This document shows positions 5,234 to 30,039 of a stretch of 42,089 nt of DNA, in pieces. The stretch is taken from positions 1-42,089 of the forward strand of contig JAJYVX010000006.1 of assembly GCA_021791795.1 (NCBI GenBank), read 5' to 3'. The notes below the pieces were generated by a model. It had not been told where the DNA came from. It worked only from the letters and a program-made list of their open reading frames with translations, and did no database searches. The stretch comes from Actinomycetes bacterium (GTDB lineage: Bacteria; Actinomycetota; Acidimicrobiia; Acidimicrobiales; Bog-793). Positions within the stretch are counted from its first letter, which is position 1; the number at the start of each line of letters is the position of its first letter. The position numbers and the translations under genes are program-made.

Positions 5234-6283
5234 ATGACCGCCGGATCGGTCGACTCCGTGCTCGGACCGGTTCCGGGCGAAGAGCTCGGACCGACCCTCG
5301 TGCACGAGCACCTGCTCGTCGACACGCGGACCACCGAGCACAAGGAGGCCAGTCATCGCGCGACGCCGCTCGGTCCGCACAACTACTACCTCTCGCGACG
5401 CCGCGACGACCATCCCCACGCCCTCGTCCTCGACTCGGTGAGCGAAGCCGTGGACGAGCTGCGGCACTTCCGCGATCTCGGTGGCCGCACTCTCGTCGAG
5501 GTCACCCCCCGCTGCCTCGCACGCAACCCGGCCGGGCTCGTCGCCATCGCGCGGGAGAGTGGTGTGAACGTCGTCATGGGCGGGGGCTTCTACGACCACC
5601 ACTACCACCAAGACGTCGTCCACCGCGCGTCCGTCGACGCGCTGGCCGAGCTCCTGGTGCACGACTGCACCGAGGGCGTCGACATCGGTGAGAGAAAGAC
5701 CGTCCGCTCGGGCGTGATCGGGGAGATCGGCCTCAGCTGGCCGGTGCTCGACTGCGAACGCAAGGCCCTCGTGGCTGCCTCCATGGCACAGGCGGCAACA
5801 GGCAAGGCGCTCGTGATCCATCCCGGACGGAACCCTGAGGGGCCTCGCTTCGCCCTCGACGAGGCAGAGCGCGCCGGTGCCGATCCCTCGCGGGTGGTCC
5901 TTTCTCACATCGACCGCACACTGGACGAGGCGGCGCCGATCGTGGAGCTGGCGCGGCGCGGCGCCTTCGTCTCGTTCGACCTGTTCGGAAACGAGTCGAG
6001 CTTCTACCCGTACTCGGACTTCCACATGCCGAACGACGGGGCACGCCTTCTTTTGATCCGGTCCGTGGCCGACCTGGGGGAGCTCGACCAGGTGGTCGTA
6101 TCTCAGGACATCTACCGCAAGACACATCTCCTCCGCTATGGCGGCGAGGGTTACGGTCACATACTCCGCGACGTAGTGCCGGTGATGGACAGGTTCGGGC
6201 TGGACGCCGGGATGCAACGGAGTCTGCTGACGGACAACCCCGCTCGTGCCCTCACAGGTCAGCCGGCGGCCACGCCGAAGTAG
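5234..6283 (+). CDS. Phosphotriesterase-family amidohydrolase, PTER/Php-like (Glu-bridged)
   Basis: SVLGPV...LGPTLVHEHL, GVIGEIGLSWP, IHPGRNP, SHIDRT, DLFG, SQDI, YGGEGYGHIL, DNPARAL. ATG 5234 chosen because family similarity begins there (ORF track starts at 5120). Confidence 0.9.
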   Translation: MTAGSVDSVLGPVPGEELGPTLVHEHLLVDTRTTEHKEASHRATPLGPHNYYLSRRRDDHPHALVLDSVSEAVDELRHFRDLGGRTLVEVTPRCLARNPAGLVAIARESGVNVVMGGGFYDHHYHQDVVHRASVDALAELLVHDCTEGVDIGERKTVRSGVIGEIGLSWPVLDCERKALVAASMAQAATGKALVIHPGRNPEGPRFALDEAERAGADPSRVVLSHIDRTLDEAAPIVELARRGAFVSFDLFGNESSFYPYSDFHMPNDGARLLLIRSVADLGELDQVVVSQDIYRKTHLLRYGGEGYGHILRDVVPVMDRFGLDAGMQRSLLTDNPARALTGQPAATPK

Positions 6284-7095
6284 GCGCGGCACTCCTGCGG
6301 TCCGGCCGGCCGCCGTCCTACCAGCTCGCACAGAACGACTGCCTGCTCGACGCGCTCGGCGTTCGAACCGGCGAGCACGCCGCGGCGCAGGTCGACGTCG
6401 TCCTCGAAGCCCACTCGGATCCCCGGCGCTCCGAGTGAGAGGGCGGCCATAAGCATCCGGGTCTGGTGGCGGCCCACCGCCGTGACGGTGAAGGGCGATC
6501 CTGCCGGTACGTGAGCCGCCATCGCGCTGAGCGCCGCCGTGGTCGGAGGCGCTCCGCCCACCACCCCGAAGACGAGGTTGAAGGGGGTGCTTGTGGGCAG
6601 CTCACCACGGGCGATCAGCTCGGCTGCGGCCACGACATGGCCGAGCTCGAACGCCTCGACCTCGAGCGGCTTGCCGAAGCCCCGCGCCACCTCGATCACC
6701 CTTGCGGTCTCGGCGCCGCTCGTGACGAAGGGGACGGCGCCGAAGTTCAAGGAGCCGGTCTCGACGCCGACGGCGTCCGGATCGGCATAGGCCCCCGCCA
6801 GGCGTTCCTCGAAGGTCATGCCGCTGCCTCCGCCCGTCGACACGCAGCAGAGCATCTCGGAGGCTCCGTGGACGCCCGCGATGACACCCTCGAACAGCCC
6901 TCGTTCCGCGCTCGGGCGACCGTCGACGTCGCGCACGTGCACGTGCACGACGCCCGCCCCGGCCGATCCCGCCCGCACCGCCTCGGCGACGATCTCCTCG
7001 ACCGTGTAGGGCACGTTCGGGTTGTCCTTCTTCGTCGGCTCGCTCCCCGTCGGCGCGACGGTGACCACCACCGCATCTCCTGTGACACTTCCCAT
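6259..7095 (-). CDS. kce: 3-keto-5-aminohexanoate cleavage enzyme family (Kce/BKACE, DUF849)
   Basis: TVAPTGSEPTKKDNPNVPYTVEEI, HVHVRD (Zn His pair), STGG, GSLNFG, VGRHQ, IRVGFED. ATG at 7095 with CAGGCT 6 nt upstream. Confidence 0.9.
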   Translation of the reverse strand: MGSVTGDAVVVTVAPTGSEPTKKDNPNVPYTVEEIVAEAVRAGSAGAGVVHVHVRDVDGRPSAERGLFEGVIAGVHGASEMLCCVSTGGGSGMTFEERLAGAYADPDAVGVETGSLNFGAVPFVTSGAETARVIEVARGFGKPLEVEAFELGHVVAAAELIARGELPTSTPFNLVFGVVGGAPPTTAALSAMAAHVPAGSPFTVTAVGRHQTRMLMAALSLGAPGIRVGFEDDVDLRRGVLAGSNAERVEQAVVLCELVGRRPAGPQECRAYFGVAAG

Positions 7096-7157
7096 GCCCA
7101 CAGCCTGCTTGCTCCCCGCCGGCGGCGCCACTACCGTGCGGCGGACCCGGAGGACCT

Positions 7158-8219
7158 GTGCAGGCGAGACATCCGCATCCGTTGGGCGCCGATCCTGCGG
7201 TGCTCGGCAGCTGGCGAGCGCTCGCGCCACCGGGGACGATGTTGCACATCGCCGACCGGGTCGACGCCGACTCGGCGGCAAACGAGCACGAGGCCGAGAT
7301 CGAGGTCGAGCTGCTCAACATCGACGCTGCGAGCTACCGCCAGATCCGCGAGGGCTGCGGGGGTGAAGCGGTGGCGATGGCATCCGCGATCAGAGAGGTC
7401 GTGACGCGGCGGGGGAAGATGCAGAACCCCACGACCGGCTCGGGCGGAGTCCTCATGGGGCGCCTCTTGAGTGTCGGGTCGGCTCGGCCCGAGCAGGGAG
7501 AGGACGCTCCGATCGGCGGCCGGGTCATCCCGCTTGCCTCGCTCATCTCCACGCCGCTCCGGCTCGACTCCGTCGGGCCACTCGACCCTGCCGACCCGCA
7601 GCTTCCCGCGAGCGGCCGCGCCATCGTCACCGGTCGGATGTCCTGGGCAGTGGTCCCCGACGACCTTCCTTTGTCGGCCGTCGTGACGGCGATCGACGTC
7701 TATCCGGCGGCCTCGCACACGAGGGCGCTCGCTCGCGATGGCGCCCACGTCGTCGTGCTCGGCTCTGGCCACTCCGGGCTTGCCGCCGTCGCGGCTGCCC
7801 GGGAGGGAGTCGGCCCGGCCGGCACCGTGACCGTGGTCGATCTGAGCGAAACGGCGCTCGAGCGCGCCAACCTCGTCGACCCCCGGGCGACCACCGTCGT
7901 AGGAGATGCCACGCAGCCCGTAGCAGTGGCGCAGAGTCTTGCTGCGCTCGGACTCCCGCCGTCCGACCTCACCCTTCTCTGCACGACGATCCAAGGTTGC
8001 GAGGGGGCGGCGATCCTCCTCACCTCGGACGAAGGGACGATCCTCTTCTTCTCGACAGCCACGTCGTTCGCGGCTGCAGGACTCGGCGCCGACTCGGTCA
8101 GCTCGCTGGCGTCGCTCTCGATCCCGAACGGCTACACGCCGGATCGGGGACGCTACCTTCTCGACCTCTTGCGGCGCACGCCTCCGCTTCTCGACTCCTT
8201 CACGCGGCACAGTCGCTGA
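7158..8219 (+). CDS. kdd: L-erythro-3,5-diaminohexanoate dehydrogenase homolog (divergent)
   Basis: LNIDAASYRQI, RGKMQNPTTGSGGVLMG, TPLRLD, DATQP, FFSTATSFAAAGLGA and NGY are collinear with Kdd. GGAGG SD upstream. Confidence 0.85.
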   Translation: MQARHPHPLGADPAVLGSWRALAPPGTMLHIADRVDADSAANEHEAEIEVELLNIDAASYRQIREGCGGEAVAMASAIREVVTRRGKMQNPTTGSGGVLMGRLLSVGSARPEQGEDAPIGGRVIPLASLISTPLRLDSVGPLDPADPQLPASGRAIVTGRMSWAVVPDDLPLSAVVTAIDVYPAASHTRALARDGAHVVVLGSGHSGLAAVAAAREGVGPAGTVTVVDLSETALERANLVDPRATTVVGDATQPVAVAQSLAALGLPPSDLTLLCTTIQGCEGAAILLTSDEGTILFFSTATSFAAAGLGADSVSSLASLSIPNGYTPDRGRYLLDLLRRTPPLLDSFTRHSR

Positions 8220-8279
8220 CGTCCTCGGGGTCGGGCAGCCATGAGCCTCGTCGGCGGGGACGTCGATCGCAGGCACTCC

Positions 8280-8480
8280 CGGATCGAGCGAACGTAGCGG
8301 TTCACCTCGTCCTCGCCCAGCACGGCCATCTCGCTCGCGATGACTTTCGCCACTCGTGCTCCCGAGCAGACGCGAACACCTTTCACCGTGGCCACGCCTG
8401 ACCAGTGCTTGGTCTCCACGACGAAGGCCCCGCTCGGGCTGTTCGCGCGGCGCGCATCCATCCCCTTGAGATGGCGACTG
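8280..8480 (-). pseudogene. NERD (nuclease-related domain) fragment
   Basis: RRANSPSGAFVVETKHWSG resembles NERD (IDH...GxFVIETKxWSG) with the IDH segment missing. No intact ORF context. Confidence 0.45.
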
Positions 8481-8625
8481 ATTGATACTTGTACGCCTTC
8501 AAGGAACACGTCGGTTCGGCCTCGCAGCAACTTTCCAGGACTCGGGCCGGTGACGCCGGTCGGCCCGCGACGAAGCGCAAGAAAGCCGCTCCGCAAAAGG
8601 TATCCTTGTCATCCGGGAGGTGCGC

Positions 8626-9897
8626 GTGTCCAGGACTGGGCCCGGGACAAGCAGATCCGGCGGCTTCACGGCCGCAGCCGCGAGGTCGCGACCGAACACG
8701 ACACGATGGATGCTCCTCGTGTTCATGTTCCTGAGCGGTTGCACTCAGATCGCCGTCGCTCCCCTTCTCCCGACATACGCGCACCAGTTCGGTCTCTCGC
8801 GCTTCGGGCAGGGCCTCCTGCTGGCGGCCACGGGGCTCGCCACGCTCGCCGTCGCCCTCCCGTCGGGCGCGCTGTCCGACCGGCTCGGATCACGCCGCGT
8901 CACGATCCTCTCCGGCGGCCTCATGGCGGGCGCCTCCTTGCTCCAGGCATTCGCTCCCTCGTTCGAGATGCTCCTCATCGCCCGCCTCATCTTCGGAGCC
9001 GGTTACGGCATCACCTGGACGTCTGGCCTCTCGTGGCTCTCCGACGTCACGCCGGCACGATCGAGCATCGGAGGTTCGGTGGCGAGCGCAGGCCTCGGCA
9101 ATGTCGTCGGCCCGGTGCTCTACGCCCTGCTCGTGGAGCACTTCGGGCTGTCGCTGCCGTTCATGGGTACGGCCTTCTGTCTTGCCGCGGTCACCGCCCT
9201 CCTCATGGGGCTCCGTGGTACCGACGCTCCGGCGGAGATGCCGGCCCCGATGCGCGCCGGCATCCTCCTCGCGGCTCAGGACCGGCTGACGCTCTCGGCT
9301 ACTGCCGCGATCGTGGTCGCCGGCGTCAGCTCAGGGGTCGCCTACCTCCTCGTACCCGGAGCTCTTCATGCCGACGGCGCCTCGACCGGCATGATCGGGC
9401 TCGTCTTCTCCGGGGCGGGGTTGCTCTTCGTAGCCGGGAGCGCGGTGACGTCGTGGTTCGGGCATGCCGCCATACGCCTTCGCGTCGCGATAGGCGGGAT
9501 GCTCGTCCTCGCGCTCGCCATCTCGCCGGCGGCAGCAAGCTCTGCCTCGCTGGCCATGATCGGGATGCTCTTCGCGACCTCGGCCGCTCGCTCGGTCGTC
9601 TGGACCGTCGCCTACCCGCTCGGAGCCGTAGGGGCTGAGGAGAGCGGCGCCGGCATAGGGCTTGTGATGGGGTTGCTCAACGGCGTCTGGGCCGCGACCG
9701 CAGTCGTCACCCCTTTGCTCGCGAGCGTCATCGCCGAGCACTCGAGCTTCCGTGCGGTGTTCGGGCTCGCCGAGATCGCGAGCGTCGTCCTCGCCGGCAT
9801 GCTCGCCGTGTTCGTCCTCAAGACGCCGGAGTCCCCGTACCGGACACTGCCCGCCAAGGCGATCCGGGCGCTTCGGGGGCTGCACCCGCACGACTGA
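8626..9897 (+). CDS. MFS transporter
   Basis: About 12 hydrophobic segments and motif A GALSDRLGSRRV. GGGAGG SD at 8615-8620 favours GTG 8626. Confidence 0.9.
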   Translation: MSRTGPGTSRSGGFTAAAARSRPNTTRWMLLVFMFLSGCTQIAVAPLLPTYAHQFGLSRFGQGLLLAATGLATLAVALPSGALSDRLGSRRVTILSGGLMAGASLLQAFAPSFEMLLIARLIFGAGYGITWTSGLSWLSDVTPARSSIGGSVASAGLGNVVGPVLYALLVEHFGLSLPFMGTAFCLAAVTALLMGLRGTDAPAEMPAPMRAGILLAAQDRLTLSATAAIVVAGVSSGVAYLLVPGALHADGASTGMIGLVFSGAGLLFVAGSAVTSWFGHAAIRLRVAIGGMLVLALAISPAAASSASLAMIGMLFATSAARSVVWTVAYPLGAVGAEESGAGIGLVMGLLNGVWAATAVVTPLLASVIAEHSSFRAVFGLAEIASVVLAGMLAVFVLKTPESPYRTLPAKAIRALRGLHPHD

Positions 9898-9990: not shown

Positions 9991-10029
9991 AAAGAAATGG
10001 AACGGGCACCCCGAGGGGCGCCCGTTCCA
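9991..10029 (-). terminator. Rho-independent terminator downstream of the ABC substrate-binding gene
   Basis: Minus strand TGGAACGGGCGCCC-CTCG-GGGTGCCCGTTCCA (14-bp stem, one G-U) followed by TTTCTTT, 23 nt after the stop codon. Confidence 0.85.
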
Positions 10030-10052
10030 GTCGGCAACTTGAGCTCAGAACG

Positions 10053-11720
10053 TCAGGTCAACCACATCATGCGGAAGCGGTACTCGATCCAGGGGTCTCC
10101 TGTCTTCTGGGCGATGACGCCGGCGAGGTTCGTCGCCTGGCCCACGATGACCGGGTTGAACGCGGGGATGATGTAGCCGCCTTCGTTGTAGTCCATGGTC
10201 ATCATCTCGTGGACGAGCCCCGTCTGCTTGGCCTGGTCCGGCTGGGCAAGCGCCTGCTTGTAGAGGTTGAGGTACGACGTCCCGTACTGGCTCGTGTCCC
10301 AGTGGGTCTCGTCCCACGGGGCGCCCGGGACCATGGAGTAGCCGGCCTGGCGCAGGTACGGGTACCCGCTCCACCAGTCCTGCGCGAACGTCCATTGCAG
10401 GTAGTTCGGGCCGAAGAACTCGCCGGAGGTCACTTGGTTGAGGTTGATGGTGATGCCGGCGGCGGAAGCCTGCTGCTTCAGCAGCTGGGCCATCTGCACC
10501 GCCCCGGTCTTGATCGGCCCGGTGGTGAGCGTCACCGTGAGACCGCTCCCGAAGCCCGCCTTCTTCAAGAGCGACTTGGCCTGCGGGATGTCCTGCACGC
10601 GCTGGGGGAGCGAGTGGTCGTACTCCGGGTCCGTGATGCTGAAGATGTCGTTGCCGAGGAAGCCGAAGCCCCCGTAGACGACCTTCTGCATCTGCGGGCG
10701 GTCGACCACGAGCCGCATCGCCTGCCTGACGTTCACATCGTTGAAGGGCGGCTTGTCGAGCCGCATGGTGAACGGGACCCAACCCGGGCCACCCCACACG
10801 TTCGCCACCTGGCCGCCGCCCCTCACCTCGGCGACGCTCGAGATCGACAGCTGGTCGCAGCACGTCGCCTGGTTCGACAGGAGCGCGTTCACCTGGCTCT
10901 GCTCGTCCGAGTAGTCCTGGATGACCAGCGTGTCGACGTAAGGCTCGCCCGTCACGAAGTAGTTCTTGTTCGCCGAGAACGAGCTCGACACGCCGGGGGT
11001 GAACTTGTCGCCCGCTGCCGGGTCGTACTTGAACGGACCGGTCCCGACGGGCAGCTTCGGGTTGTAGCCGACCGGCACGATGCTCATCTCGCCGTTGCCT
11101 ATGAGCGAGATGGGCAGGATCGAGTACGGCGAGCTGCAGGGGATCTGCACCGTGTAGTCGTCCAGCTTCTTCGCGTTCTTCAGCTCCAACGCCGCGAGCC
11201 CGGAAGCCGCCGAAAGCTTGTTGCTCACGATGCGGTTGAAGGTGTAGAGCACGTCGTCGACGGTGAGCGTCTTGCCGTTGTGGAACTCGATGCCCTTGCG
11301 CAGCTTGATGGTCCACTCGGTGGCACTCGGGTTGGCCGTCACCTCCTCGGCGAGGTGCGGCTGGATGACGTTGTCCTGGTTCAGCTCGAGGAGTGTGTCG
11401 TAGAGCTGAGGGGCACGTGCGAAGTCGAGGTTGGTGACCGCCTTGTTGCCGTCGAGCGTGTCGGCCGAGCCGCCGCCCGTGCTGGCGAGCGTGATCGTCC
11501 CGCCGCGCTTCGGCTTGCCTGCTCCCGATGTCGTCGTGCTGCTGCTGCTGCTGCCGCTGCTGCTCGGGGACGACCCGCACGCTTCGAGGGTGCCGCCCAT
11601 ACCGAGGACAGCGAGGCCACCGCCGGCGCGGATGAGGAAAGCGCGCCGAGAGTGCGGACCCAACAGACCGCCGCCCTCCGAACTACCTGGCTCCTGTTCC
11701 GGGCTCTTGTCTCGGGCCAT
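10053..11720 (-). CDS. ABC transporter substrate-binding protein, family 5 (peptide/nickel type), Tat-exported lipoprotein
   Basis: SRRAFL twin-Arg motif, LEAC lipobox, Ser/Thr linker, LRKGIEFHNGKTLTVDDVLYT, GTGPFK, PFNDVNVRQAM. Confidence 0.92.
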   Translation of the reverse strand: MARDKSPEQEPGSSEGGGLLGPHSRRAFLIRAGGGLAVLGMGGTLEACGSSPSSSGSSSSSTTTSGAGKPKRGGTITLASTGGGSADTLDGNKAVTNLDFARAPQLYDTLLELNQDNVIQPHLAEEVTANPSATEWTIKLRKGIEFHNGKTLTVDDVLYTFNRIVSNKLSAASGLAALELKNAKKLDDYTVQIPCSSPYSILPISLIGNGEMSIVPVGYNPKLPVGTGPFKYDPAAGDKFTPGVSSSFSANKNYFVTGEPYVDTLVIQDYSDEQSQVNALLSNQATCCDQLSISSVAEVRGGGQVANVWGGPGWVPFTMRLDKPPFNDVNVRQAMRLVVDRPQMQKVVYGGFGFLGNDIFSITDPEYDHSLPQRVQDIPQAKSLLKKAGFGSGLTVTLTTGPIKTGAVQMAQLLKQQASAAGITINLNQVTSGEFFGPNYLQWTFAQDWWSGYPYLRQAGYSMVPGAPWDETHWDTSQYGTSYLNLYKQALAQPDQAKQTGLVHEMMTMDYNEGGYIIPAFNPVIVGQATNLAGVIAQKTGDPWIEYRFRMMWLT

Positions 11721-15757: not shown

Positions 15758-15789
15758 GGAGGAACGTACTCGCCGCGTAAGGTTGCCGC

Positions 15790-21458: not shown

Positions 21459-22465
21459 CGTGCGATCCTCCGGCGCGGGGTCGCGAGGAGGGCGATCACG
21501 TCGGTGAGGATGTTCATGAAGACGTAGAAGGCGGCCAGGATCACGACGGTGAACTGGATGATCGGGATGTCGCGGTTGGTCACGGCATAGACGAGGCCCT
21601 GGCCGATGCCGGGGAAGTTGAAGATGTACTCGACGACCACGATCCCGCCGGCAAGGTAGAGGAAGTTGAGACCGATCACCTGGATCGTCGGGGCGATTGC
21701 GTTCGGCAAAGCGTGCACGAACACCACCCGCCATGCCTTGAGCCCCTTCAACCGGGCCATCTCGACGTAGTCGGACTCGAGCGCCTCGATCATGGCGGCT
21801 CTCATCATCCGCTGTATGTAGGGCACGATCACGATGACGAGCGTCGCCACGGGGAGCACGAGCATCTTCGGGTCGTTCCAGGCGTAGCTGCCCGGCGGGA
21901 TGAGGGACACGGCAGGGAGCACGTGCGAGACCGTCGTTGCGAACAGGATGATGAGCGCGATGGCGATGACGAACTCGGGGAGGGCGGTGATGCCGAGCGC
22001 CGCGACGGCCGAGATGTGGTCGAACCAGCCGTCCTTGCGCAGGGCCGCCATCGCGCCGAGGACGATCCCGAGTACCGATCCGATGATGCCCGCCACGAAG
22101 ACGAGGACGGCGGAGTCGATGAGGCGGGGCTCGATCTGCGCCCACACGCCGAGCCCGTTCGAGGTCGAGGTCCCCAGGTGTCCCGTGAACAGGCCCGTGA
22201 ACCACACCCAGTACTGGTCGACGAGCCCTCGGTCGAGGCCGAGCTGCTGCTCGAGCGCACGCACCCGGGCCGGAGTCGACGTCTTGCCGAGGATGGCGTA
22301 GGCGGCGTTCCCCGGGAGGACCTCGGTTGCGAGGAACACGATGATCGAGACGATGACGAGCGTGAGGAGGCCGACGAGCGTCCGCCGGATCACGAGGGCG
22401 AAGAGAGGATGCTGCTGGCTCCAGCGCAAAGAGCGCGCCGGCGGTGGAGCAACCGCTACCGCCAT
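21455..22465 (-). CDS. Peptide ABC transporter permease (DppB/OppB-like)
   Basis: LPGNAA, LGLDR, SDYVEMARLKG (EAA loop), HALPNA, FNFPGIG, RDIP. GGAGG SD before ATG 22465. Confidence 0.92.
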   Translation of the reverse strand: MAVAVAPPPARSLRWSQQHPLFALVIRRTLVGLLTLVIVSIIVFLATEVLPGNAAYAILGKTSTPARVRALEQQLGLDRGLVDQYWVWFTGLFTGHLGTSTSNGLGVWAQIEPRLIDSAVLVFVAGIIGSVLGIVLGAMAALRKDGWFDHISAVAALGITALPEFVIAIALIILFATTVSHVLPAVSLIPPGSYAWNDPKMLVLPVATLVIVIVPYIQRMMRAAMIEALESDYVEMARLKGLKAWRVVFVHALPNAIAPTIQVIGLNFLYLAGGIVVVEYIFNFPGIGQGLVYAVTNRDIPIIQFTVVILAAFYVFMNILTDVIALLATPRRRIAR

Positions 22466-22604: not shown

Positions 22605-23774
22605 CTAGTCCGAGAAAACGGCCCGCGAGATGACGAGGCGCTGGATGTCGGAGGTTCCCTCCTCGATCTCCTCCAACTTGGCGTCGCGCATCCACTTCTC
22701 GACGAGATGCTCACGCGAGTAGCCCCAGCCTCCGAGTGTCTGGACGGCCGCCCAGGTGGAGAACATCGCCGTCTCGGAGGCGAAGAGCTTTGCCATGGCC
22801 GCCTCCCTCGTGGCCTTCTCGCCGGCGTCGAGCCGCCGGGCGGCGCGCCACACCATGAGACGTGCGGCTTCGATGCGGGTCGCCATGTCGGCCACACGGA
22901 ACGCCACTGCCTGGTGCTTCGAGATCGACACCCCGAATTGCTTGCGTTCGGAGGCATAGTCCACGGCGTACTCGAGCGCCGCCCTCGCCACACCGGTCGC
23001 CGCGGCGGCGAGTATCACCCTCGAGGCGTCGAAGGTGTGCATGAGGCCGAGGAAACCCTGGCCCTCCTCGCCCAGCCTGTCCTCGACGGGCACGGCGACG
23101 TCGTCGAGGAAGATCTCCGTGTTGAGCAGTGCGCGCTGACCCATCTTCTTGAGCGGCGGACCGAACTGCATCCCCGCTCTCTCCTTCTCGAGAAGGAATG
23201 CGGTGACGCCCTTCGCCCTCTTCGTGGGGTCGACCGTGGCGAACACGACGTAGAAGCGCGCCACGCCGCCGTTCGAGATCCAGGCCTTCGTGCCCGAGAG
23301 CCGGTAGCCGTCGGCGGTGCGTTCTGCCCTCGTCGCCACGGCGGCCGCGTCTGATCCGACGTCCGGCTCGGTCACCGCGAGGGCGGTCAAGGGCGGCGGG
23401 TTCTCGCAGAGCGGCCTCAACCAACGCTCCTTCTGATCGGCCGTGCCGAGCTCGAGGAGCGGGTGGGCGAAGAAGCCGTTCGAGGTAAGCAGGTTGCCGA
23501 GGGCGAGATCGCCGGCGCACAGCTCCTCCTGCACGAGGCACTGGGTGAGCACGTCGGTGAAGCCGCCACCTCCGAGCTCGGCCGGGAGCATGAACGACGT
23601 GATGCCGGCGTCCGCCGCCTTCTCCCAGATGCCCCAGTGCATCTCGGTGTCGGCCTCGTCGACCTCACGGGCCACGGGGCGGATCTCGGTCTCGGCGAAG
23701 TGGCGACACATCCGGACGATCTCGTGCTGCTCTCCTGTGAGCGGTACCAGTTCCTCGGGCAACGAGGGGTGCAT
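22605..23774 (-). CDS. Acyl-CoA dehydrogenase
   Basis: TEPDVGSD, GTKAWISNGG, KKMGQRA, RKQFG, GGWGY, IEEGTSDIQR. ATG 23774 with TACTAT 6 nt upstream. Confidence 0.93.
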   Translation of the reverse strand: MHPSLPEELVPLTGEQHEIVRMCRHFAETEIRPVAREVDEADTEMHWGIWEKAADAGITSFMLPAELGGGGFTDVLTQCLVQEELCAGDLALGNLLTSNGFFAHPLLELGTADQKERWLRPLCENPPPLTALAVTEPDVGSDAAAVATRAERTADGYRLSGTKAWISNGGVARFYVVFATVDPTKRAKGVTAFLLEKERAGMQFGPPLKKMGQRALLNTEIFLDDVAVPVEDRLGEEGQGFLGLMHTFDASRVILAAAATGVARAALEYAVDYASERKQFGVSISKHQAVAFRVADMATRIEAARLMVWRAARRLDAGEKATREAAMAKLFASETAMFSTWAAVQTLGGWGYSREHLVEKWMRDAKLEEIEEGTSDIQRLVISRAVFSD

Positions 23775-23838: not shown

Positions 23839-24807
23839 GTGGCCACCGCTCGGAACCTCGCCGTCATAACCGACCCGGACGAGATCGACCCCTCTCCGGC
23901 GGTGTCGGCGCTCGAGGAGGCCGGGTATGCCGTGGAGGTGCTCGGCAGCCGCGAGCCGTCGTTGATCGCCGCGGCCGCAGCCGAGGCGACGGCTCTCGTC
24001 GTCGGATACGCCAGGGTCGACTCCGGGCTTCTCGATCACCTCCCTCGGCTGCGCATCGTCGCGACGATGTCCGTCGGCGTCGACACGGTGGATCTCCGCG
24101 CAGCCGAGGAGCGCGGCGTCTGGGTGTCCAACGTGCCGGACGCCGCGACCGAGGAGGTCGCAGTCCACGCTCTCGCCCTGGCACTCGGGCTCGTGCGCCG
24201 CATCACCTTCCTCGACCGCCATGTGCGCTCGGGCGGTTGGGGCGTGGATGCCGCGGAGACGATGCGCCGGCCATCGCGCCTCTCGCTCGGGGTGGTGGGG
24301 TTGGGGCGGATAGGGCGCCGTTTTGCCGCTCTTGCGGGTCCGGCGTTCGGGGACGTGAGGGGATACGACCCGTTCGTGGCCCCGTCTGCCTGGCCGGCGG
24401 GCGTCATGGCCTGCGACCTCGACGAGCTGCTGGCGCGCTCCGACGTGGTGTCGCTCCACCTGCCCGGCGAGGCGGGTGCCCCGCCGCTTCTTCACCGCGG
24501 CAGGCTGTCCCTCCTGCCCGAGGGTGCCGCGCTCGTCAACGTGTCCCGCGGCAGCCTCGTCGACACCGAGGCTCTCGTCTCCCTGCTCGATGCCGGCCGC
24601 CTCTCGGGGGCGGGGCTCGACGTCCTCCCGGTCGAGCCGCCCGCGGCCGACGACCCCCTGCGGCGGCACCCGCGCATCGTGCTCACGCCTCACCTCGCCT
24701 ACCTCTCGGAGGAGAGCGCGATCGATTATCCCCTCAAAGCTGCGGAGAACGTCGTGGCGTGGTCGACTGGGGGAGAACCGCGGGACGTCGTCGTGCGCGG
24801 CCGATGA
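23839..24807 (+). CDS. D-isomer-specific 2-hydroxyacid dehydrogenase (CtBP/SerA-like)
   Basis: VGVDTVD, NVPD..TEEVA, GLGRIG, NVSRG, LDVLPVEP, TPHLA (Arg/Glu/His triad). Confidence 0.9.
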   Translation: MATARNLAVITDPDEIDPSPAVSALEEAGYAVEVLGSREPSLIAAAAAEATALVVGYARVDSGLLDHLPRLRIVATMSVGVDTVDLRAAEERGVWVSNVPDAATEEVAVHALALALGLVRRITFLDRHVRSGGWGVDAAETMRRPSRLSLGVVGLGRIGRRFAALAGPAFGDVRGYDPFVAPSAWPAGVMACDLDELLARSDVVSLHLPGEAGAPPLLHRGRLSLLPEGAALVNVSRGSLVDTEALVSLLDAGRLSGAGLDVLPVEPPAADDPLRRHPRIVLTPHLAYLSEESAIDYPLKAAENVVAWSTGGEPRDVVVRGR

Positions 24808-24864: not shown

Positions 24865-26562
24865 ATGGAAGAGATGACCGGGGGCAAGGTCGTCGTGGAG
24901 TCGCTTCTGGCGAACGGCGTGGAGGTGGCGTTCGGCATCCCCGGCACGCACAGCCTCCCCATCTATCAGCACCTCGCCGCGAGCTCGATCAGACACGTCA
25001 CGCCACGTCACGAACAGGGCGCCGGCTACGCGGCGGACGGCTACGCCCGCTCGAGCGGACGGATCGCCGCTTGCCTCGTCACGACCGGCCCGGGAGTCAC
25101 GAACATCGCGACGGCCATCGGGCAGGCCTACTCCGACTCGATACCGCTTCTCGTCGTCTCGCCGGGGATGCCTGCTGCCATCGAGGGAGGCGACCACGGC
25201 TTCCTGCACGAGGCGAAGAACCAGAGCCTTCTCACCTCTGCCATCGCCGCCTGGAGCCACCGGGCGAGCTCGCAGCAGGACCTGGCGGACGCCCTCCGCC
25301 GGGCGTTCGCCCACCTGTCGGGCGGGCGGCCGAGGCCCGTCCACATCGAGGCGCCCATCGAGGTGCTGGCAGAGCAAGGCCCGGTCGACGAGATCCGGCC
25401 GGCCGAGCACGCGGCGCCCGTCTCGCCTGCCCCCGATGCCGTGGCCCGAGCCGCGCAGGCGCTCGCCTCGGGCCGCAGGCGTGCGCTCGTGCTCGGTGGA
25501 GGTGCCCGTGGCGCCGCCGCGGAGGCCACAGCCCTCGCCGAGCTGCTCTCCATGGCGGTCGTGACGACGACGAACGGGAAGGGGGTCGTGTCCGAACGGC
25601 ATCCGCTGTCCCTCGGCGCCACGGTCATGGCACGCTCCACGCGTGACCATCTGGCCGACTGCGACGTGGTGCTCGCGGTCGGTACCGAGCTCGGCGACTC
25701 GGACCTGTGGGGCGAGCCGCTCCGGGTGAACGGGACCGTCATCCGCGTGGACGTCGATCCGCAGCAGCTCGACAAGAACCTCGCCGCGGCGGTGAAGGTG
25801 CACGGCGACGCCGCGCTCAGCCTGCGGGCGCTCGCCGATCGCCTCGGGGGCTCGGCCGGGACCGGTGTGACCGCCGGGGCCGGTGTGACCGCCGGGGCCG
25901 GTGTGACCGCCGCGGGGGGCTCGGACGGCGTGGGGGGCGCCGGGCGGGCGGACGTCTGGCAGGATGCCTCGCTCGCCCTCGTGGCGGAGCAGGAGGTCGC
26001 ACGGGTGCGTGCCGGCGTCGCCACCGACCTCGCGGCCGACGTTCAACCGTTCGGTCCCCTCATGGCCTCGCTCGAGAAGGTCCTCGCCCCTGACGCCGTC
26101 GTCGCGGGCGATGCCGCGATGGCCTGCTACTTCGGGGTGCAGTACCTCCTCCCCTTCGAGCGGCCGTCACGGTGGCTGTTCCCGACCGGCTTCTGCACGC
26201 TCGGCTACGGTCTGCCGGCTGCGATCGGTGCGAAGCTCGCCGCGCCCGATCGCCAGGTCATGGCGATCATGGGCGACGGCGGGGTGATGTTCACCATCGG
26301 CGAGCTGGCGACTGCCGTGCAGGTCGGCCTCTCACTCCCTCTCGTCATCGTGACGAACAACGGCTACGGCGAGATCCGCAAGGAACTGGCCGCCATGGGC
26401 GTCTCGCCGCTCGGCACGGACTTCCCGGCGCCGGACTTCGTCGCTCTCGCAGGGGCGTTCGGCGCCCACGGCGTCCGGGTCGAGCCGGACGAGGTGGGCT
26501 CGGCAGTCGAGGAGGCCTTCGGGCGACCCGGCCCTACGGTCGTCGAGACCGCGGTCGGCTGA
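24865..26562 (+). CDS. Thiamine diphosphate-dependent enzyme, 2-ketoarginine decarboxylase (AruI)-like
   Basis: FGIPGTH, RHEQGAGYAADGYAR, TGPGVTN, GQAYSDSIP, TLGYGLPAAIGA, GDGG...NNGY ThDP motif. The subfamily call is tentative. Confidence 0.85.
   Translation: MEEMTGGKVVVESLLANGVEVAFGIPGTHSLPIYQHLAASSIRHVTPRHEQGAGYAADGYARSSGRIAACLVTTGPGVTNIATAIGQAYSDSIPLLVVSPGMPAAIEGGDHGFLHEAKNQSLLTSAIAAWSHRASSQQDLADALRRAFAHLSGGRPRPVHIEAPIEVLAEQGPVDEIRPAEHAAPVSPAPDAVARAAQALASGRRRALVLGGGARGAAAEATALAELLSMAVVTTTNGKGVVSERHPLSLGATVMARSTRDHLADCDVVLAVGTELGDSDLWGEPLRVNGTVIRVDVDPQQLDKNLAAAVKVHGDAALSLRALADRLGGSAGTGVTAGAGVTAGAGVTAAGGSDGVGGAGRADVWQDASLALVAEQEVARVRAGVATDLAADVQPFGPLMASLEKVLAPDAVVAGDAAMACYFGVQYLLPFERPSRWLFPTGFCTLGYGLPAAIGAKLAAPDRQVMAIMGDGGVMFTIGELATAVQVGLSLPLVIVTNNGYGEIRKELAAMGVSPLGTDFPAPDFVALAGAFGAHGVRVEPDEVGSAVEEAFGRPGPTVVETAVG
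25862..25912. repeat. 18-bp in-frame tandem repeat (~2.8 copies)
   Basis: CCGGTGTGACCGCCGGGG x2 plus CCGGTGTGACCGCCG; encodes GVTAGA repeats. Confidence 0.95.
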
Positions 26563-26605
26563 AGCACGGGCCCGGGCCGGCCCTGGGCAGCTCGCCGGGC
26601 GGGCC

Positions 26606-27775
26606 TCAGTCGGCCCAGGGCGTGAGGATGCCGTCGAGCCCGCGCTTCGAGATCTCGTTCGCGATGACGAGCCGCTGGATCTCGGAGGTGCCCTCCCATA
26701 TCCGGTCGACGCGGATGTCCCGGTAGAGCCGCTCGACGGCGTACTCGCGCATGTAGCCCCGGCCCCCGAAGATCTGCACCGCCCGGTCGATGACACGGCC
26801 GGCGGCTTCTGATGCCGAGAGCTTCACCATCGACGCCTTTGCGTGGAGCAGCTTGCGTGGTACGCCGGCGTCGGCTTCGGCACCCACCTGGTAGACGAAC
26901 GCACGATTCGTCGCGATCTCGACGGCCGAGTCGGCGAGCATCGCCTGGATCATCTGGTTCTCGATGAGACGCTTGCCGAACTGCTCCCGGGACGAGGCCC
27001 ACTCGGTCGCCTCCCGCAGTGCGCGCTCTGCTCCGCCGAGCGCCCGCGCGGCGATCATGAGCCGTTCCTCGACGAACCACTCCTGGGTCAGGGCGGCGCC
27101 CCCGCCGATCTCGCCGAGCACGCTGTCGGGGCCGACCTCGACCCCATCGAAGGTGAAGATCGGATGCTTGAAGACGAAGGTGTGCATGTAGGCCGGGGTG
27201 CGGAGCACGCTCACCCCAGAGAGGTCCCGGTCGACGAGAAAGAGCGTCGGGCGCTTGGCCGGCATCACCTGGGCGAGGACGATGAGGAAGTCGGCGACGT
27301 CCCCAACGGTCACGAACCACTTCTCGCCGTCGATCCTGAACCCCTCGCCCGAGGGAGTCGCCGTCGTCACGATCGCCGTGTAGTCCGAGCCCGCATCGGC
27401 CTCGGTCACCGCATAGGCGTCACGCCTCTCGCCGGCGATGCCCGGAAGCAGGTAGCGCTCGCGCTGTCCCTCGCTGCAGGCCTTGAGCGCGTTGGCCGGC
27501 CGCCACACGGTGTCCCAGAGCGCGTTCGTCAGCTGGCCGAGCTCCTCTTGCACGAGCACCTGCTCGAGGATGGATAAGCCCGCGCCGCCCCACTCCGCCG
27601 GCATGTTGACGGCGTTCAGGCCCGATTCCAGGACGGCCTTGGCGATGAGGGCGAGCGACTCGGCGGGCAGACCGTCGCCGGTCTCGCACTGATCCTCGTA
27701 GGTCTTGATGGTCGAAGCAAGGTCGCGGGCGCGCGCCTTCAGTTCGAGTTGACGTGACGTGTAGTTCCAATCCAT
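26606..27775 (-). CDS. Acyl-CoA dehydrogenase
   Basis: TEADAGSD, GEKWFVT, REQFG, FGGRGYM, IWEGTSEIQR. GGAGG SD before ATG 27775. Confidence 0.93.
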   Translation of the reverse strand: MDWNYTSRQLELKARARDLASTIKTYEDQCETGDGLPAESLALIAKAVLESGLNAVNMPAEWGGAGLSILEQVLVQEELGQLTNALWDTVWRPANALKACSEGQRERYLLPGIAGERRDAYAVTEADAGSDYTAIVTTATPSGEGFRIDGEKWFVTVGDVADFLIVLAQVMPAKRPTLFLVDRDLSGVSVLRTPAYMHTFVFKHPIFTFDGVEVGPDSVLGEIGGGAALTQEWFVEERLMIAARALGGAERALREATEWASSREQFGKRLIENQMIQAMLADSAVEIATNRAFVYQVGAEADAGVPRKLLHAKASMVKLSASEAAGRVIDRAVQIFGGRGYMREYAVERLYRDIRVDRIWEGTSEIQRLVIANEISKRGLDGILTPWAD

Positions 27776-27797
27776 GGCAGCCTCCAACCTCCGTTAC

Positions 27798-27817
27798 ATA
27801 ACATCACAGCGCTGTGA
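27798..27817 (+). promoter_or_regulatory. Candidate -10 (TAACAT) followed by a perfect 14-bp palindrome (putative operator)
   Basis: TAACAT at 27798-27803 and TCACAGCGCTGTGA at 27804-27817, within the 49-bp spacer between divergent genes. Confidence 0.5.
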
Positions 27818-27824
27818 GGACCAG

Positions 27825-28925
27825 ATGGACAATTCGGTGAGAATTCGCGCGGCCGTGTGCCACGGCTTCAAAGAGGTCCTCATGGTGGAGGAGCTGGACC
27901 TGCGCCGGCCCGGGCCGGGCGAGGTCACGGTCGCGGTGAGCGCGTGCGGCGTGTGCCACAGCGACCTCACGTACTGGAGCGGCGCCTGGGGCGGCGGCGT
28001 TCCCGCCGTCTACGGTCACGAGGTGGCGGGTGTGGTCGAGGAGCTTGGGCCTGGGATCGTCGGCATCTCGGAGGGCGACCACGCCGTCGTGACGCTCATC
28101 CGGGCCTGCGGGCGATGCCGTCTCTGCCAGAAGGGCCTGCCGGCGCTCTGCGAGCAGATGGGGGCGTTGCCGCTCTCTCGCAACTCGCCTCTCACCACCG
28201 TCGGGGGTGGAGGTGTGGTGCAAGGTTTGCGGACGGCGGGTTTCGCCGAGAAAGTCACCGTCCACGAGTCCCAGGTGGTCCCCATCGCCAAGCACCTGCC
28301 CCTCGACGTCGCCTGCATCGTCGGCTGCGGGGTCGTCACCGGTGCAGGCGCGGTTCTCAACACCGCAGGCGTCGAGCCGGGCTCGTCGGTGGCCGTCATA
28401 GGTGCCGGCGGGGTCGGCCTCAACGTCGTGCAGGGGGCCGTCGTCGCGGGAGCGAGCGACGTCGTGGCGATCGACGTTCTCGCAGCAAAGCTCGCCGCCG
28501 CCCGCACCTTCGGCGCCACCTGCACGGCCGACGCCCGCTCAGGGGAGGTGGAGGCCGTGGTGACGACCGTCACGGCGGGAAGGGGCTTCGACTACGTCTT
28601 CGTCGCCGCCGGGTCGGTACCGGCAGTAGAACAGGGCCTCGGCCTCGTGGCAAAGGGCGGCACGGTCGTCATCCTCGGCATGCCCGAGGGCATGCGTGCG
28701 TCCTTCGACCCCGAGGCGATCGCAGACCGCGGCGTCCGGGTGCTCGGCAGCAAGGTCGGGTCCGTGCGCCCGCAGGTGGACATACCGGCACTGCTCGGAC
28801 TGTACGAGCAAGGGCGGCTCAAGCTCGACGAGCTCGTCACCCACCGCTTCGCTCTCGACGCCGTCAACGAGGCCTTCACAGCTGCGGCGAGCGGAGAGGC
28901 GCTGAGGGCCGTTGTCCAGCTCTGA
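27825..28925 (+). CDS. Zn-dependent alcohol dehydrogenase (MDR family)
   Basis: GVCHSD, GHEVAG, CGRCRLC...C structural Zn site, GCGVVTG, GAGGVG. Confidence 0.92.
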   Translation: MDNSVRIRAAVCHGFKEVLMVEELDLRRPGPGEVTVAVSACGVCHSDLTYWSGAWGGGVPAVYGHEVAGVVEELGPGIVGISEGDHAVVTLIRACGRCRLCQKGLPALCEQMGALPLSRNSPLTTVGGGGVVQGLRTAGFAEKVTVHESQVVPIAKHLPLDVACIVGCGVVTGAGAVLNTAGVEPGSSVAVIGAGGVGLNVVQGAVVAGASDVVAIDVLAAKLAAARTFGATCTADARSGEVEAVVTTVTAGRGFDYVFVAAGSVPAVEQGLGLVAKGGTVVILGMPEGMRASFDPEAIADRGVRVLGSKVGSVRPQVDIPALLGLYEQGRLKLDELVTHRFALDAVNEAFTAAASGEALRAVVQL

Positions 28926-30039
28926 CCCTGTCGTCACCGCAGTCGAGACCTACTCGACGCCAGACGTCTGCGTGGTGCGCGTCGCCACCGACTCGGGCGA
29001 GGAGGGCTTCGGCCAGACGGCGCCCTACAACGCCGACATAACCGCCGCCGTGATCGAGCGGCAGGTCGCGCCGCACGCGCTCGGCGCTGCGGTCACGGGG
29101 CCGGGCGATCTCGACGCCCTCGGCACCCGGATACTCGAGCGCGAGTTCAAGTTCCCGGGCTCCTACGTCTGCCGGGCGCTTGGCGGAGTCGACACCGCGC
29201 TCTGGGACCTCCTCGGCAAGAGGGAGGGCAAGACCGTCGCCGGGATGCTCGGGTCATCGGCCCGCTCCTGTCCCGTCTACGCCTCGAGCATGCGCCGGGA
29301 CATCGCGCCCGCCGAGGAGGCAGCCCGCCTCGTCGAGCTGAGGGACCGCTTCGGCTACCGGGCGTTCAAGGTGCGGGTCGGCTCCGAGTGCGGGCACGAC
29401 CGTGACGAATGGCCCGGGCGCACCGAAGAGCTCGTCCCCACCATGAGACGCGCCCTCGGGGACGAGGCGATCATGCTCGTCGACGGCAACAGCTGCTACA
29501 CGCCCGCAAAGGCGATAGAGGTCGGCCGGCTCCTCGAGCAGCACGGCTACGCCCACTTCGAGGAGCCCTGCCCCTACTGGGAGCAGGAGTGGACCGCCGA
29601 GGTCACCGCTTCACTGGCGCTCGACGTGGCCGGCGGCGAGCAGGACTGCCTGATGGCCACGTGGCGACGCATGATCGAGCTGCAGGCCGTCGACGTCGTC
29701 CAGCCGGACGTGTGCTACGTCGGTGGTCTGAGCCGGGCGCTTCGCGTCGCCGGCCTCGCCGTCGAGGCCGGTCTCCCCGTGACCCCGCACTCGGCCAACC
29801 TGAGCCTCGTCACGGTGTTCTCGCTCCACCTGCTGGCCGCGATCGAGAACGCCGGGCCGTACGCGGAGCTCTCGATAGAGCCCGACGAGTACTACCCGTG
29901 GCAGAGCGGGATCTTCGAGCCGGCCCTCGTCGCCCACGACGGCGTGCTCGACATCCCCGACCTCGGCCCGGGCTGGGGGGTCGAGATCAGGCGTGACTGG
30001 CTGGAGAGGGCCACGAGGACGGTGATGGCGCGGGGTTGA
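28912..30039 (+). CDS. Mandelate racemase/muconate lactonizing enzyme family (enolase superfamily)
   Basis: DTALWDLLGK, YASSM, FKVRVG, DGN, EEP, GGEQ, QPDV, TPH. TTG start overlaps the ADH 3' end. Confidence 0.9.
   Translation: MSSSDPVVTAVETYSTPDVCVVRVATDSGEEGFGQTAPYNADITAAVIERQVAPHALGAAVTGPGDLDALGTRILEREFKFPGSYVCRALGGVDTALWDLLGKREGKTVAGMLGSSARSCPVYASSMRRDIAPAEEAARLVELRDRFGYRAFKVRVGSECGHDRDEWPGRTEELVPTMRRALGDEAIMLVDGNSCYTPAKAIEVGRLLEQHGYAHFEEPCPYWEQEWTAEVTASLALDVAGGEQDCLMATWRRMIELQAVDVVQPDVCYVGGLSRALRVAGLAVEAGLPVTPHSANLSLVTVFSLHLLAAIENAGPYAELSIEPDEYYPWQSGIFEPALVAHDGVLDIPDLGPGWGVEIRRDWLERATRTVMARG

Follow-up and report, generated by a model that had tools for sequence, protein, structure and literature searches.

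A recurrent actinobacterial gene cluster around a Kdd-like dehydrogenase and a PTER-type amidohydrolase: a candidate modular route for N-acylated β-amino acids

The window analyzed here is one complete contig of 42,089 bp (JAJYVX010000006.1) from the 3.45-Mb, 351-contig assembly GCA_021791795.1 of an Acidimicrobiales bacterium, estimated to be 91.9% complete. Between positions 5234 and 30039 it carries an uninterrupted series of catabolic and transport genes (Table 1), which we read—with a probability of roughly 0.55—as a modular catabolic cluster whose core is a deacylase followed by a β-amino-acid dehydrogenase, with a β-keto acid cleavage enzyme (BKACE) and CoA-linked enzymes consuming the product. 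The genes at the heart of this proposal encode a phosphotriesterase-related (PTER-type) amidohydrolase, a BKACE resembling Kce and a dehydrogenase resembling Kdd, i.e., the L-erythro-3,5-diaminohexanoate dehydrogenase of lysine fermentation. The cluster is real and recurrent, and its core varies the Kdd/Kce theme by coupling it to a deacylase; it is not categorically new. Our literature search found no description of this cluster, of such dehydrogenases, or of genes for N-acetyl-β-alanine or acetyl-β-lysine deacetylases.

A preliminary description of the window had named the two central genes Kdd and Kce outright, and neither name could be kept in its strict sense. The Kdd-like protein scored 137.5 on the Kdd equivalog model NF052381, which has a cut-off of 200, whereas a control Kdd encoded in a KamA-like/KamD/KamE cluster (locus L051) reached 232.9. 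The window protein aligned over its full length with the 3,5-diaminohexanoate dehydrogenase of PDB entry 7dl3 (132.4 bits, E = 2.5e-37, residues 17–349 on 9–347), and its gene is present as a single copy in the genome; it gave no match in our Pfam scan, the PF26370 assignment in Table 1 being a precomputed one. We then placed the protein in a tree of 41 Kdd homologues, from which L014 (a split match), L022, L025, L032 and L057 (in-frame stops) and exact duplicates were excluded. The 24 homologues with KamA-like, KamA, KamD or Amidohydro_3 neighbours fell on one side of a branch with a Shimodaira–Hasegawa-like approximate likelihood-ratio test (SH-aLRT) support of 100, and the window protein, together with 16 others, fell on the opposite side—in other words, the Kdd-like clade is set apart from every Kdd adjoining lysine aminomutases among these 41 rows. 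Within this clade, the neighbouring gene was PTER-like in six cases (including the window), creatininase-like in six and HDAC-like in two, with none seen in three. Mapped on the tree, the neighbour labels required 6 changes; shuffled labels averaged 16.3, and none of 200 shuffles got down to 6. Such a test is inflated by the relatedness of the sequences, and 4 of the 24 aminomutase-linked rows stem from genomes flagged as unpublished.

The BKACE of the window belongs firmly to its family, with 241.3 bits on PF05853 against a gathering score of 24.8, and scored 223.5 on the Kce equivalog model NF052387 against a cut-off of 382. That cut-off is strict: the BKACEs of five genomes (three bearing Kam genes and two from the HDAC-linked subclade) also stayed below it, at 240–346 bits when full-length matches were counted, and the window protein was the most divergent of those compared. 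Alignment with Kce (PDB 2y7d, 143.7 bits) revealed identical His-x-His, Arg and Glu-Asp positions, presumably the Zn-binding and catalytic residues of Kce; the aligned conserved residues are shared family-wide and point to no particular substrate class. This is the only BKACE in the genome. Judged by these comparisons, the 'Kdd' and 'Kce' of the window are family-level relatives rather than orthologues. A NetSyn preprint covers the genomic contexts of BKACEs, and its available text mentions neither Kdd nor lysine.

The preliminary description had also stated that the pair occurs without KamA, KamDE and Kal, and this holds across the assembly. No match to the LAM_C profile of KamA was found in the genome (the control matched 4 of 14 reference genomes), nor any to the Lys-AminoMut_A profile of KamD (whose control matched nowhere), and tblastn with actinobacterial KamA-like, KamA, KamD and KamE proteins from related loci returned nothing at E ≤ 1e-5; for KamA, KamD and KamE, this absence covers the assembled 91.9% of the genome. 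For Kal, the sole search made was with a bifunctional Kal-Kce model, which matched through its BKACE part only (114–437). The cluster is not a lysine fermentation cluster. The window pair shares with Kdd and Kce of that pathway both folds and families, the adjacency of the genes and, presumably, the chemistry—NAD(P)-linked deamination of a β-amine, followed by acetyl-CoA-dependent cleavage of a β-keto acid. It differs in its sub-equivalog scores, in that its Kdd-like clade never lies beside aminomutases in the tree, and in its neighbours, which are deacylases, transporters and CoA-oxidation genes.

Separately from the window, 24 high-G+C genomes of Actinomycetota (L051–L060, L023–L048; phylum sample, four rows flagged as unpublished) were seen to carry compact KamA-like/KamA, Kdd, Amidohydro_3, KamD and KamE clusters, accompanied by a regulator of the AsnC or TrmB type. 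The textbook lysine fermentation set includes no such amidohydrolase between kdd and kamD. A plasmid collection yielded canonical Kdd only, at 34% identity, from Acetoanaerobium and Fusobacterium. We dropped one attempt to read the substrate from the dehydrogenase: Glu310 of Kdd had been taken to bind the 5-amino group of the substrate, and the Kdd-like proteins have an invariant Asp at this position, but a review (PMC9902596), in its available text, has Glu310 hydrogen-bonding the amide of NADPH.

The strongest pointer to a deacylation step is the PTER-type protein, whose start ATG at 5234, as chosen in the preliminary description, matches the orthologue starts in our alignment. Its closest relative in the PDB is 9efa, a 'Phosphotriesterase-related protein' (227.9 bits, residues 41–379), with an alignment that runs the whole length, through the helical insert region. 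According to the available text of a 2026 preprint (PMC12873775), the metal ligands of a sponge PTER are His27, His29, Glu174, His206, His235 and Asp303; Tyr131 steadies the oxyanion; His206, Arg209, Arg238 and Tyr268 bind the sulfonate; and His305 is proposed to protonate the amine as it leaves. We mapped this numbering on the 9efa chain with an offset of +2, inferred from the alignment, and took 9efa to be the crystallized sponge PTER or a close orthologue because every named residue type matches at that offset. The six metal ligands are kept in the window protein and in all six orthologues adjoining Kdd-like genes, as are Tyr131, Arg209, Arg238 and Tyr268 (7/7 proteins). The bacterial proteins depart from their eukaryotic counterpart at the channel residue Phe270, which is Tyr in all seven, and at His305 (see below); moreover, the window gene sits inside a catabolic cluster. 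Mouse PTER, as given in the available text of PMC13311154, prefers N-acetyl-β-alanine, also hydrolyses N-acetyltaurine, and is inactive on N-acetyl-α-alanine, N-acetyl-γ-aminobutyrate (N-acetyl-GABA), carnosine and pantothenate. That last inactivity disposed of pantothenate, a candidate with nothing else in its favour.

To place the cluster in a broader context, we searched with the Kdd-like protein and obtained 410 relatives among 8000 candidates scored; those carrying an organism label among the best 120 of the 410 were metagenome-assembled genomes of Acidimicrobiales, Actinomycetota or Solirubrobacteraceae, and no named cultured strain bearing the non-aminomutase clade turned up in this search or among the species-representative loci. 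The gene is patchy, since no match turned up in 300 further genomes from the order to which the window belongs, and a phylum sample of 400 other genomes gave a homologue in 33, all at ≤45% identity. Forty-four loci (15 from species-representative genomes, 27 metagenome contigs, and L049 and L050 from the phylum sample) were compared with the window proteins by tblastn, and their unassigned open reading frames (ORFs) were scanned with Pfam and NCBIfam; the 25 in which the Kdd-like gene has 1.2 kb or more of sequence on each side were treated as informative. An amidohydrolase of one of three families lay within 1.5 kb of the Kdd-like gene in 18 of these 25, and over all 44 loci the families numbered 12 (PTER-like), 11 (creatininase-like) and 2 (HDAC/acetylpolyamine-amidohydrolase; 25/44 in total)—counts that overstate independence, as the lineages are related and some loci nearly duplicate others (L067 and L068 resemble L010). 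PTER-like and creatininase-like genes share the same PotD-type transporter, with substrate-binding proteins 67–85% identical, and the same TetR/Kdd-like arrangement (L066, L070 and L074 versus L009–L018, L071, L076 and L078); the creatininase, TetR and PotD tallies used queries from L009, a genome flagged as unpublished, and the same families were found by Pfam in L017. Two unrelated hydrolases that pair with one transporter and one Kdd-like clade bear the signature of non-orthologous displacement of a single catalytic step, most simply deacylation. The earlier suggestion of an N-acylated β-amino or diamino acid as substrate gains support from this interchange of unrelated deacylase-type families.

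The remaining modules recur as well. The Kdd-like gene has a BKACE gene no more than 2.5 kb away in six of the 25 informative loci, as well as in L004 and the window (the loci are L004, L005, L006, L049, L050, L066 and L074). Orthologues of a CoA module—acyl-CoA dehydrogenases (ACAD1 and ACAD2), a short-chain dehydrogenase/reductase (SDR), an ADP-forming acyl-CoA synthetase (ACS) and a crotonase or enoyl-CoA hydratase (ECH)—travel together at the identities listed in Table 1, and in Solirubrobacterales-labelled genomes all five lie next to the Kdd-like gene as a divergent operon. The ACAD2 copy in that position was, in three such genomes, the best of 13–14 ACAD hits, at 66–69% against 46–50% for the next. 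Directly after the Kdd-like gene, L010, L067 and L068 carry a Zn-dependent alcohol dehydrogenase (ADH) gene and then an enolase-superfamily gene; HisC-like aminotransferase and thiamine diphosphate (ThDP) enzyme genes are its immediate neighbours in L072, L073 and L083, and occur close by in L007, L009, L017 and L018. The HisC-like orthologue of the window's genome stands alone on another contig (C8). Taken together, BKACE, the CoA module, the ThDP/aminotransferase pair, the ADH/enolase pair and ATP-binding cassette (ABC) uptake genes recur around the Kdd-like gene in two actinobacterial classes, and polyamine-type families appear in the relatives as well (a PotD-like substrate-binding protein, a PuuC-like aldehyde dehydrogenase, the HDAC family, a flavin amine oxidase and OYE/FadH-type flavoenzymes). 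The grouping exceeds chance: orthologues of most of the genes recur beside Kdd-like genes elsewhere. The co-occurrence check proposed with the preliminary description was borne out, both for the adjoining amidohydrolase and for the BKACE, CoA, ThDP/aminotransferase, ADH/enolase and ABC modules. The window looks like an especially complete, interleaved set of modules found as subsets elsewhere, with ACAD2 between the ThDP gene and the ADH gene, and ACAD1 and the CoA ligase within the ABC operon. One further locus (L061; G689:C3:365000–384900) holds ACS, SDR, ACAD2 and ECH genes next to a family-5 binding-protein gene and a BKACE gene whose product differs from that of the window (31% identity), so the pairing of the CoA module with BKACE enzymes extends to a setting that lacks a Kdd-like gene.

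On this basis, a small N-acylated—most likely N-acetylated—β-amino acid or conjugate would be imported by the Dpp-type ABC transporter and/or the permease of the major facilitator superfamily (MFS). The 1039-residue DUF3604 hydrolase, which we propose as the first hydrolase on the imported conjugate, may trim a larger compound, and the PTER-type amidohydrolase would strip the acyl group to yield the free β-amine. The Kdd-like enzyme would then deaminate the β-amino acid oxidatively, giving a β-keto acid and ammonia, and the BKACE would move the acyl part to CoA at the expense of acetyl-CoA, releasing acetoacetate; in relatives devoid of a BKACE, the ADP-forming ligase might activate the acid instead. 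The SDR, the crotonase and the two acyl-CoA dehydrogenases would work on the resulting CoA esters, and the arm formed by the 2-hydroxyacid dehydrogenase, ThDP enzyme, ADH and enolase-family protein could either handle a second moiety or supply the β-amino acid from a precursor. The sequence of events in the preliminary description (Kdd, Kce and then deacylation of the acyl-CoA) appears less probable than an order in which deacylation immediately precedes the Kdd-like enzyme, since PTER accepts free N-acetyl-β-amino acids and not N-acetyl-GABA, and since the deacylase and Kdd-like genes adjoin.

Acetylpolyamine oxidation leads through 3-acetamidopropanal to N-acetyl-β-alanine. This compound or β-alanine itself (e.g., derived from acetylpolyamines) is a tentative choice for the substrate, N6-acetyl-β-lysine or β-lysine is a less probable one, and the remaining odds fall to some other β-amino acid. 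N-acetyl-β-alanine and N6-acetyl-β-lysine nevertheless lead the individual candidates—the former because of the specificity of PTER and the polyamine-type families in relatives, the latter because the nearest characterized relatives use C6 substrates and HDAC-type genes occur among the neighbours. With β-alanine as substrate of the Kdd-like enzyme, the product would be malonate semialdehyde. In a 2025 study on the CORE CO2-reduction cycle, more than 20 of 124 tested BKACEs turned malonate semialdehyde together with acetyl-CoA into formyl-CoA plus acetoacetate, and the reaction worked in vivo from β-alanine; the authors, in the available text, call it new-to-nature and the substrate non-native (PMC11961710). 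If the Kdd-like enzyme does make malonate semialdehyde, the adjoining BKACE could run that same reaction. The CORE cycle is synthetic, however, with no natural pathway claimed, and the window BKACE is no more than a distant relative of BKACE15 (a score of 87.5 bits on 8rip). A natural, apparently undescribed β-alanine route, with deacetylation of N-acetyl-β-alanine (e.g., from the breakdown of acetylpolyamines) by the PTER-like enzyme, a new Kdd-like β-alanine dehydrogenase and a BKACE forming formyl-CoA and acetoacetate, is put forward as a long shot; in relatives devoid of a BKACE, the fate of malonate semialdehyde would be propionyl-CoA, reached via 3-hydroxypropionate with an SDR, an ADP-forming ligase, a crotonase and an ACAD.

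Several observations weigh against a modular cluster acting in one pathway. We infer the catalytic steps, their order and the substrate, as well as every function, from family membership and neighbourhood. His305, the proposed proton donor of the sponge enzyme, is Tyr in all seven bacterial PTER-like proteins, and the true substrates of the PTER-like enzyme may be esters or lactones instead of amides, as a nearer bacterial relative, 3k2g, is one we take to be a carboxylesterase. The binding protein of the window is of the peptide type, and most relatives use the PotD type; in 7 of the 25 informative loci, an amidohydrolase is missing from the 1.5 kb around the Kdd-like gene; the DUF3604 gene co-occurs in L005 only among the compared loci, and its homologues in two distant genomes have zero neighbours in common with the window. 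ACAD, ECH and SDR genes are abundant in Actinomycetota. The relatedness of the compared loci noted above belongs here too, as do the lack of any related locus with all 18 genes among those compared, the absence of a regulator gene among the 18, and a search for a shared operator in which no 8-mer recurring across several intergenic regions was conspicuous. Such features would fit a mosaic island in which only the PTER-like, BKACE and Kdd-like genes (perhaps with the MFS gene) form a functional unit and the others are independent operons that accumulated by a mobile zone: the genes occupy both strands in at least eight units, no compared locus unites all modules, the DUF3604 homologues of other actinobacteria have unrelated neighbours, and an IS1634-family transposase lies 3–5 kb to the left. 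In the two Acidimicrobiia-type genomes G688 and G689, furthermore, the CoA module is on another contig or 1.2 Mb from the Kdd-like gene, the G689 copy being the one next to the 31%-identity BKACE. Against such an island, every module is found again beside Kdd-like genes in one or more other lineages; the identities are at the level of orthologues, two classes are represented, and the modules of the window are interleaved. The mosaic island is a possible but minority explanation.

Alternatives that keep the core and change the substrate fare less well. Barker's aerobic β-lysine pathway reportedly proceeds via N6-acetyl-β-lysine with an acetyltransferase, a transaminase, acetyl-CoA-dependent β-keto acid cleavage and an acyl-CoA deacetylase. 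Transposed to the window, N6-acetyl-β-lysine or a β-lysine conjugate would be degraded with deacetylation last: the Kdd-like enzyme would deaminate C3, the BKACE would cleave 3-keto-6-acetamidohexanoate to 4-acetamidobutyryl-CoA and acetoacetate, and the PTER-like enzyme would deacetylate. Barker's route combines cleavage of a β-keto acid by acetyl-CoA with a deacetylase in an aerobe devoid of aminomutases, and on sequence grounds the BKACE and the PTER-like protein of the window are candidates for those two steps. For both core enzymes, the closest characterized relatives have C6 compounds derived from lysine as substrates, HDAC-family deacetylases (which address terminal acetamides) adjoin Kdd-like and BKACE genes in L049 and L050, and genes for the aerobic pathway were not found described in the literature searched; in addition, a likeness between the pockets of PTER and HDACs is reported in the available text of PMC12873775. 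Barker's route differs, however, in relying on an acetyltransferase and a transaminase and in having its deacetylase act on the acyl-CoA, where the window has a dehydrogenase and neither an acetyltransferase nor an aminotransferase family among its 18 genes. Moreover, PTER is inactive on N-acetyl-GABA, the free-acid analogue of the proposed substrate (PMC13311154, available text), the anion-binding residues that suit a two-carbon spacer are kept, no β-lysine-forming aminomutase was found in the genome (though uptake would dispense with one), and the neighbourhoods give no specific pointer to lysine. The N6-acetyl-β-lysine route raised in the preliminary description therefore survives as rather unlikely, with nothing singling it out. 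Still less can be said for a route in which the PTER-like enzyme frees taurine from N-acetyltaurine, the Kdd-like enzyme oxidizes taurine as an NAD-linked dehydrogenase and the ThDP enzyme behaves like Xsc towards sulfoacetaldehyde. Hydrolysis of N-acetyltaurine by PTER, the conserved sulfonate-binding arginines and the ThDP genes abutting the Kdd-like gene in L072 and L083 would agree with it, but the ThDP enzymes score 210–220 bits on Xsc models with cut-offs of 620–676, the BKACE and CoA module are left without a role, and no sulfite-handling genes were seen in the Pfam scans of the window and related loci; we regard it as very improbable. Canonical lysine fermentation with its missing genes elsewhere in the genome is close to untenable. 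It draws on the label 'L-erythro-3,5-diaminohexanoate dehydrogenase' that the JGI and NCBI pipelines give to the relatives of the Kdd-like protein, and it is opposed by the failed profile and tblastn searches for KamA, KamD and KamE, by the separate clade and sub-cut-off equivalog scores, and by a Kal-Kce model matched through its BKACE part only.

Should the modular reading, with deacylation ahead of a Kdd-like dehydrogenase, be true, it would have implications for both enzymology and ecology. The 3,5-diaminohexanoate dehydrogenase is the only reported β-amino-acid dehydrogenase according to the available text of a review (PMC9902596), so that the Kdd-like clade would represent a second natural one, with a different substrate—a new source of biocatalysts for chiral β-amino acids. 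Homologues of PTER in bacteria would acquire a physiological role, tied to the mammalian hydrolysis of N-acetyltaurine and N-acetyl-β-alanine, and uncultured soil and water Actinomycetota would be credited with a catabolic route for an acylated β-amino compound, possibly an osmolyte or polyamine product. The hypothesis would be directly testable with three small soluble enzymes.

Turning to the layout, the G+C content of the window is about 70%, with a composition unbroken at the cluster, and because of this high value genes were called from third-position GC (GC3) before being scanned with Pfam and NCBIfam. The calls recovered exactly the 18 contiguous catabolic and transport genes, and every family, that the preliminary description had listed for 5234–30039. 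Since the genes lie on both strands in at least eight transcription units, this is a cluster and not a single operon; the clearest operon comprises ACAD1, permease B, permease C, the ATPase and the CoA ligase, with overlapping start and stop codons. A promoter scan found no sigma-70-like promoters and one strong terminator only, and riboswitch or tRNA clues were likewise not found.

Table 1. Features of the cluster and its right flank, with orthologues at related loci (L numbers denote loci, G numbers genomes and C numbers contigs; percentages are identities)
Feature	Position	Strand	Basis or remark	Orthologues at related loci
PTER-type (phosphotriesterase-related) binuclear-metal amidohydrolase; proposed N-acyl-β-amino-acid deacylase	5234..6283	+	PF02126, 191.7 bits	
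BKACE, Kce-like, not Kce equivalog	6259..7095	-	ATG at 7095; PF05853	
Kdd-like NAD(P)-dependent β-amino-acid dehydrogenase (putative), non-aminomutase clade	7158..8219	+	NF052381, PF26370, likeness to 7dl3	
MFS transporter, weak likeness to organic-anion symporters	8620..9897	+	PF07690; NCBIfam matches weak only	58–59%, near Kdd-like gene: L004, L005
Strong hairpin terminator, 14-bp stem	9998-10029		3' of family-5 binding-protein gene	
Family-5 (peptide/opine/nickel type) ABC substrate-binding protein	10053..11720	-	PF00496, 222.5 bits	50–69%: L005, L010, L065
1039-aa cytoplasmic DUF3604/CehA-McbA (PHP-like) metallohydrolase	11887..15006	+	PF12228, NF038032	63%, adjoins family-5 binding-protein gene: L005
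Crotonase / enoyl-CoA hydratase (ECH)	14993..15757	-	PF00378	51–64%, with ACAD2, SDR, ACS: L009, L013, L016, L017, L061, L062
SDR oxidoreductase (putative 3-hydroxyacyl-CoA or 3-oxoacid reductase type)	15790..16590	+	PF13561	60–72%, adjoining Kdd-like gene: L005, L009, L013, L016, L017, L071, L083
ADP-forming acyl-CoA synthetase (ACS), last in ACAD1-permease-ATPase operon	16557..18683	-	PF13549, PF13607, PF13380	48–57%: L009, L015, L017, L061, L072, L076, L079, L086
Fused DppD/DppF-type ABC ATPase	18697..20490	-	two PF00005 and PF08352; ATG 20490 overlaps stop of permease C	66–68%: L010, L067
ABC permease, OppC/DppC type (permease C)	20487..21458	-	PF00528, PF12911	
ABC permease, OppB/DppB type (permease B)	21455..22465	-	PF00528, PF19300	68–70%: L010, L067, L069
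Acyl-CoA dehydrogenase 1 (ACAD1), short-chain type	22605..23774	-	PF00441, PF02771, PF02770; start approximate	60–68%: L009, L015, L071, L081
D-isomer-specific 2-hydroxyacid dehydrogenase	23839..24807	+	PF02826, PF00389	42–45% (homologues): L009, L017
ThDP-dependent 2-oxoacid decarboxylase-type enzyme	24865..26562	+	NF005712	31–46% (homologues), beside or near Kdd-like gene: L007, L017, L018, L072, L083
Acyl-CoA dehydrogenase 2 (ACAD2)	26606..27775	-	Pfam ACAD domains	66–79%; 79% in CoA module of G688 and G689
Zn-dependent alcohol dehydrogenase (class-III / NDMA-ADH-like)	27774..28925	+	PF08240, PF00107; NCBIfam sub-cut-off	50–57%, directly after Kdd-like gene: L010, L066, L067, L068; near: L005
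Enolase-superfamily (MR/MLE) enzyme	28912..30039	+	PF13378, PF02746	66%, after the ADH gene: L010, L067, L068
leuS	30063-32522		right flank; Pfam	

Some of the accessory proteins deserve comment. The AlphaFold2 model of the DUF3604 protein (predicted local distance difference test, pLDDT, 74.7) displays an N-terminal β-propeller, a low-confidence catalytic domain and a C-terminal β-sandwich; a fold search with the propeller gave generic matches to lectins and glycosidases only, Atlas gave weak leads (BNR/sialidase-like, 0.82–0.89), and no sequence relative was found in the PDB. Its full-length architecture is kept at 48–67% identity across Actinomycetota, including Streptomyces and Nonomuraea, in proteins that are all unannotated. 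No close solved structure was found for the family-5 binding protein in the PDB search. The NCBIfam matches of ACS are all below cut-off (acetate-, 4-hydroxybutyrate- and 3-hydroxypropionate-CoA ligase types), as is the AcrC-type model that heads the list for ACAD1, and the ThDP enzyme barely passes NF005712, the 5-guanidino-2-oxopentanoate decarboxylase subfamily (507.5 versus a cut-off of 500). The enolase-family protein matches the structural-genomics entries 3t8q, 3u4f, 3tcs and 3t9p, all unnamed, at 448–483 bits (482.6 for 3t8q), which suggests a tightly conserved activity, with function unassigned in those entries; no relevant paper naming these codes was found. Elsewhere in the same genome, contig C65 (5834–9529) encodes an OYE/FadH-type flavoenzyme, a paralogue of the Zn-dependent ADH (41% identity) and a formaldehyde-activating enzyme—a set with counterparts near the Kdd-like loci L005 and L010, suggestive of N-demethylation.

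To the left of the cluster, at 532–2715, an IS1634-family transposase ORF (182 bits, identified with NCBIfam) overlaps a DUF4277 piece in another frame of the same strand and an opposite-strand DUF6788 ORF, and this zone looks like a disrupted insertion sequence. Within the cluster, a short ORF (8153–8596, minus strand) in the 400 bp that separate the Kdd-like gene from the MFS gene gave a weak, below-cut-off match to a NERD nuclease (E = 0.0074) and is probably a gene remnant. On the right, ectoine was considered and rejected as a substrate: the M24 gene at 35617–36729 scored 74 against 575 on the ectoine hydrolase model and looks PepQ-like instead. Next to it, a 609-residue ORF (36726–38555, minus strand) combines a LipB-type octanoyltransferase domain (53–235) with a lipoyl synthase radical-SAM domain (300–513), and appears to be a LipB-LipA fusion located upstream of E2 and E3 genes.

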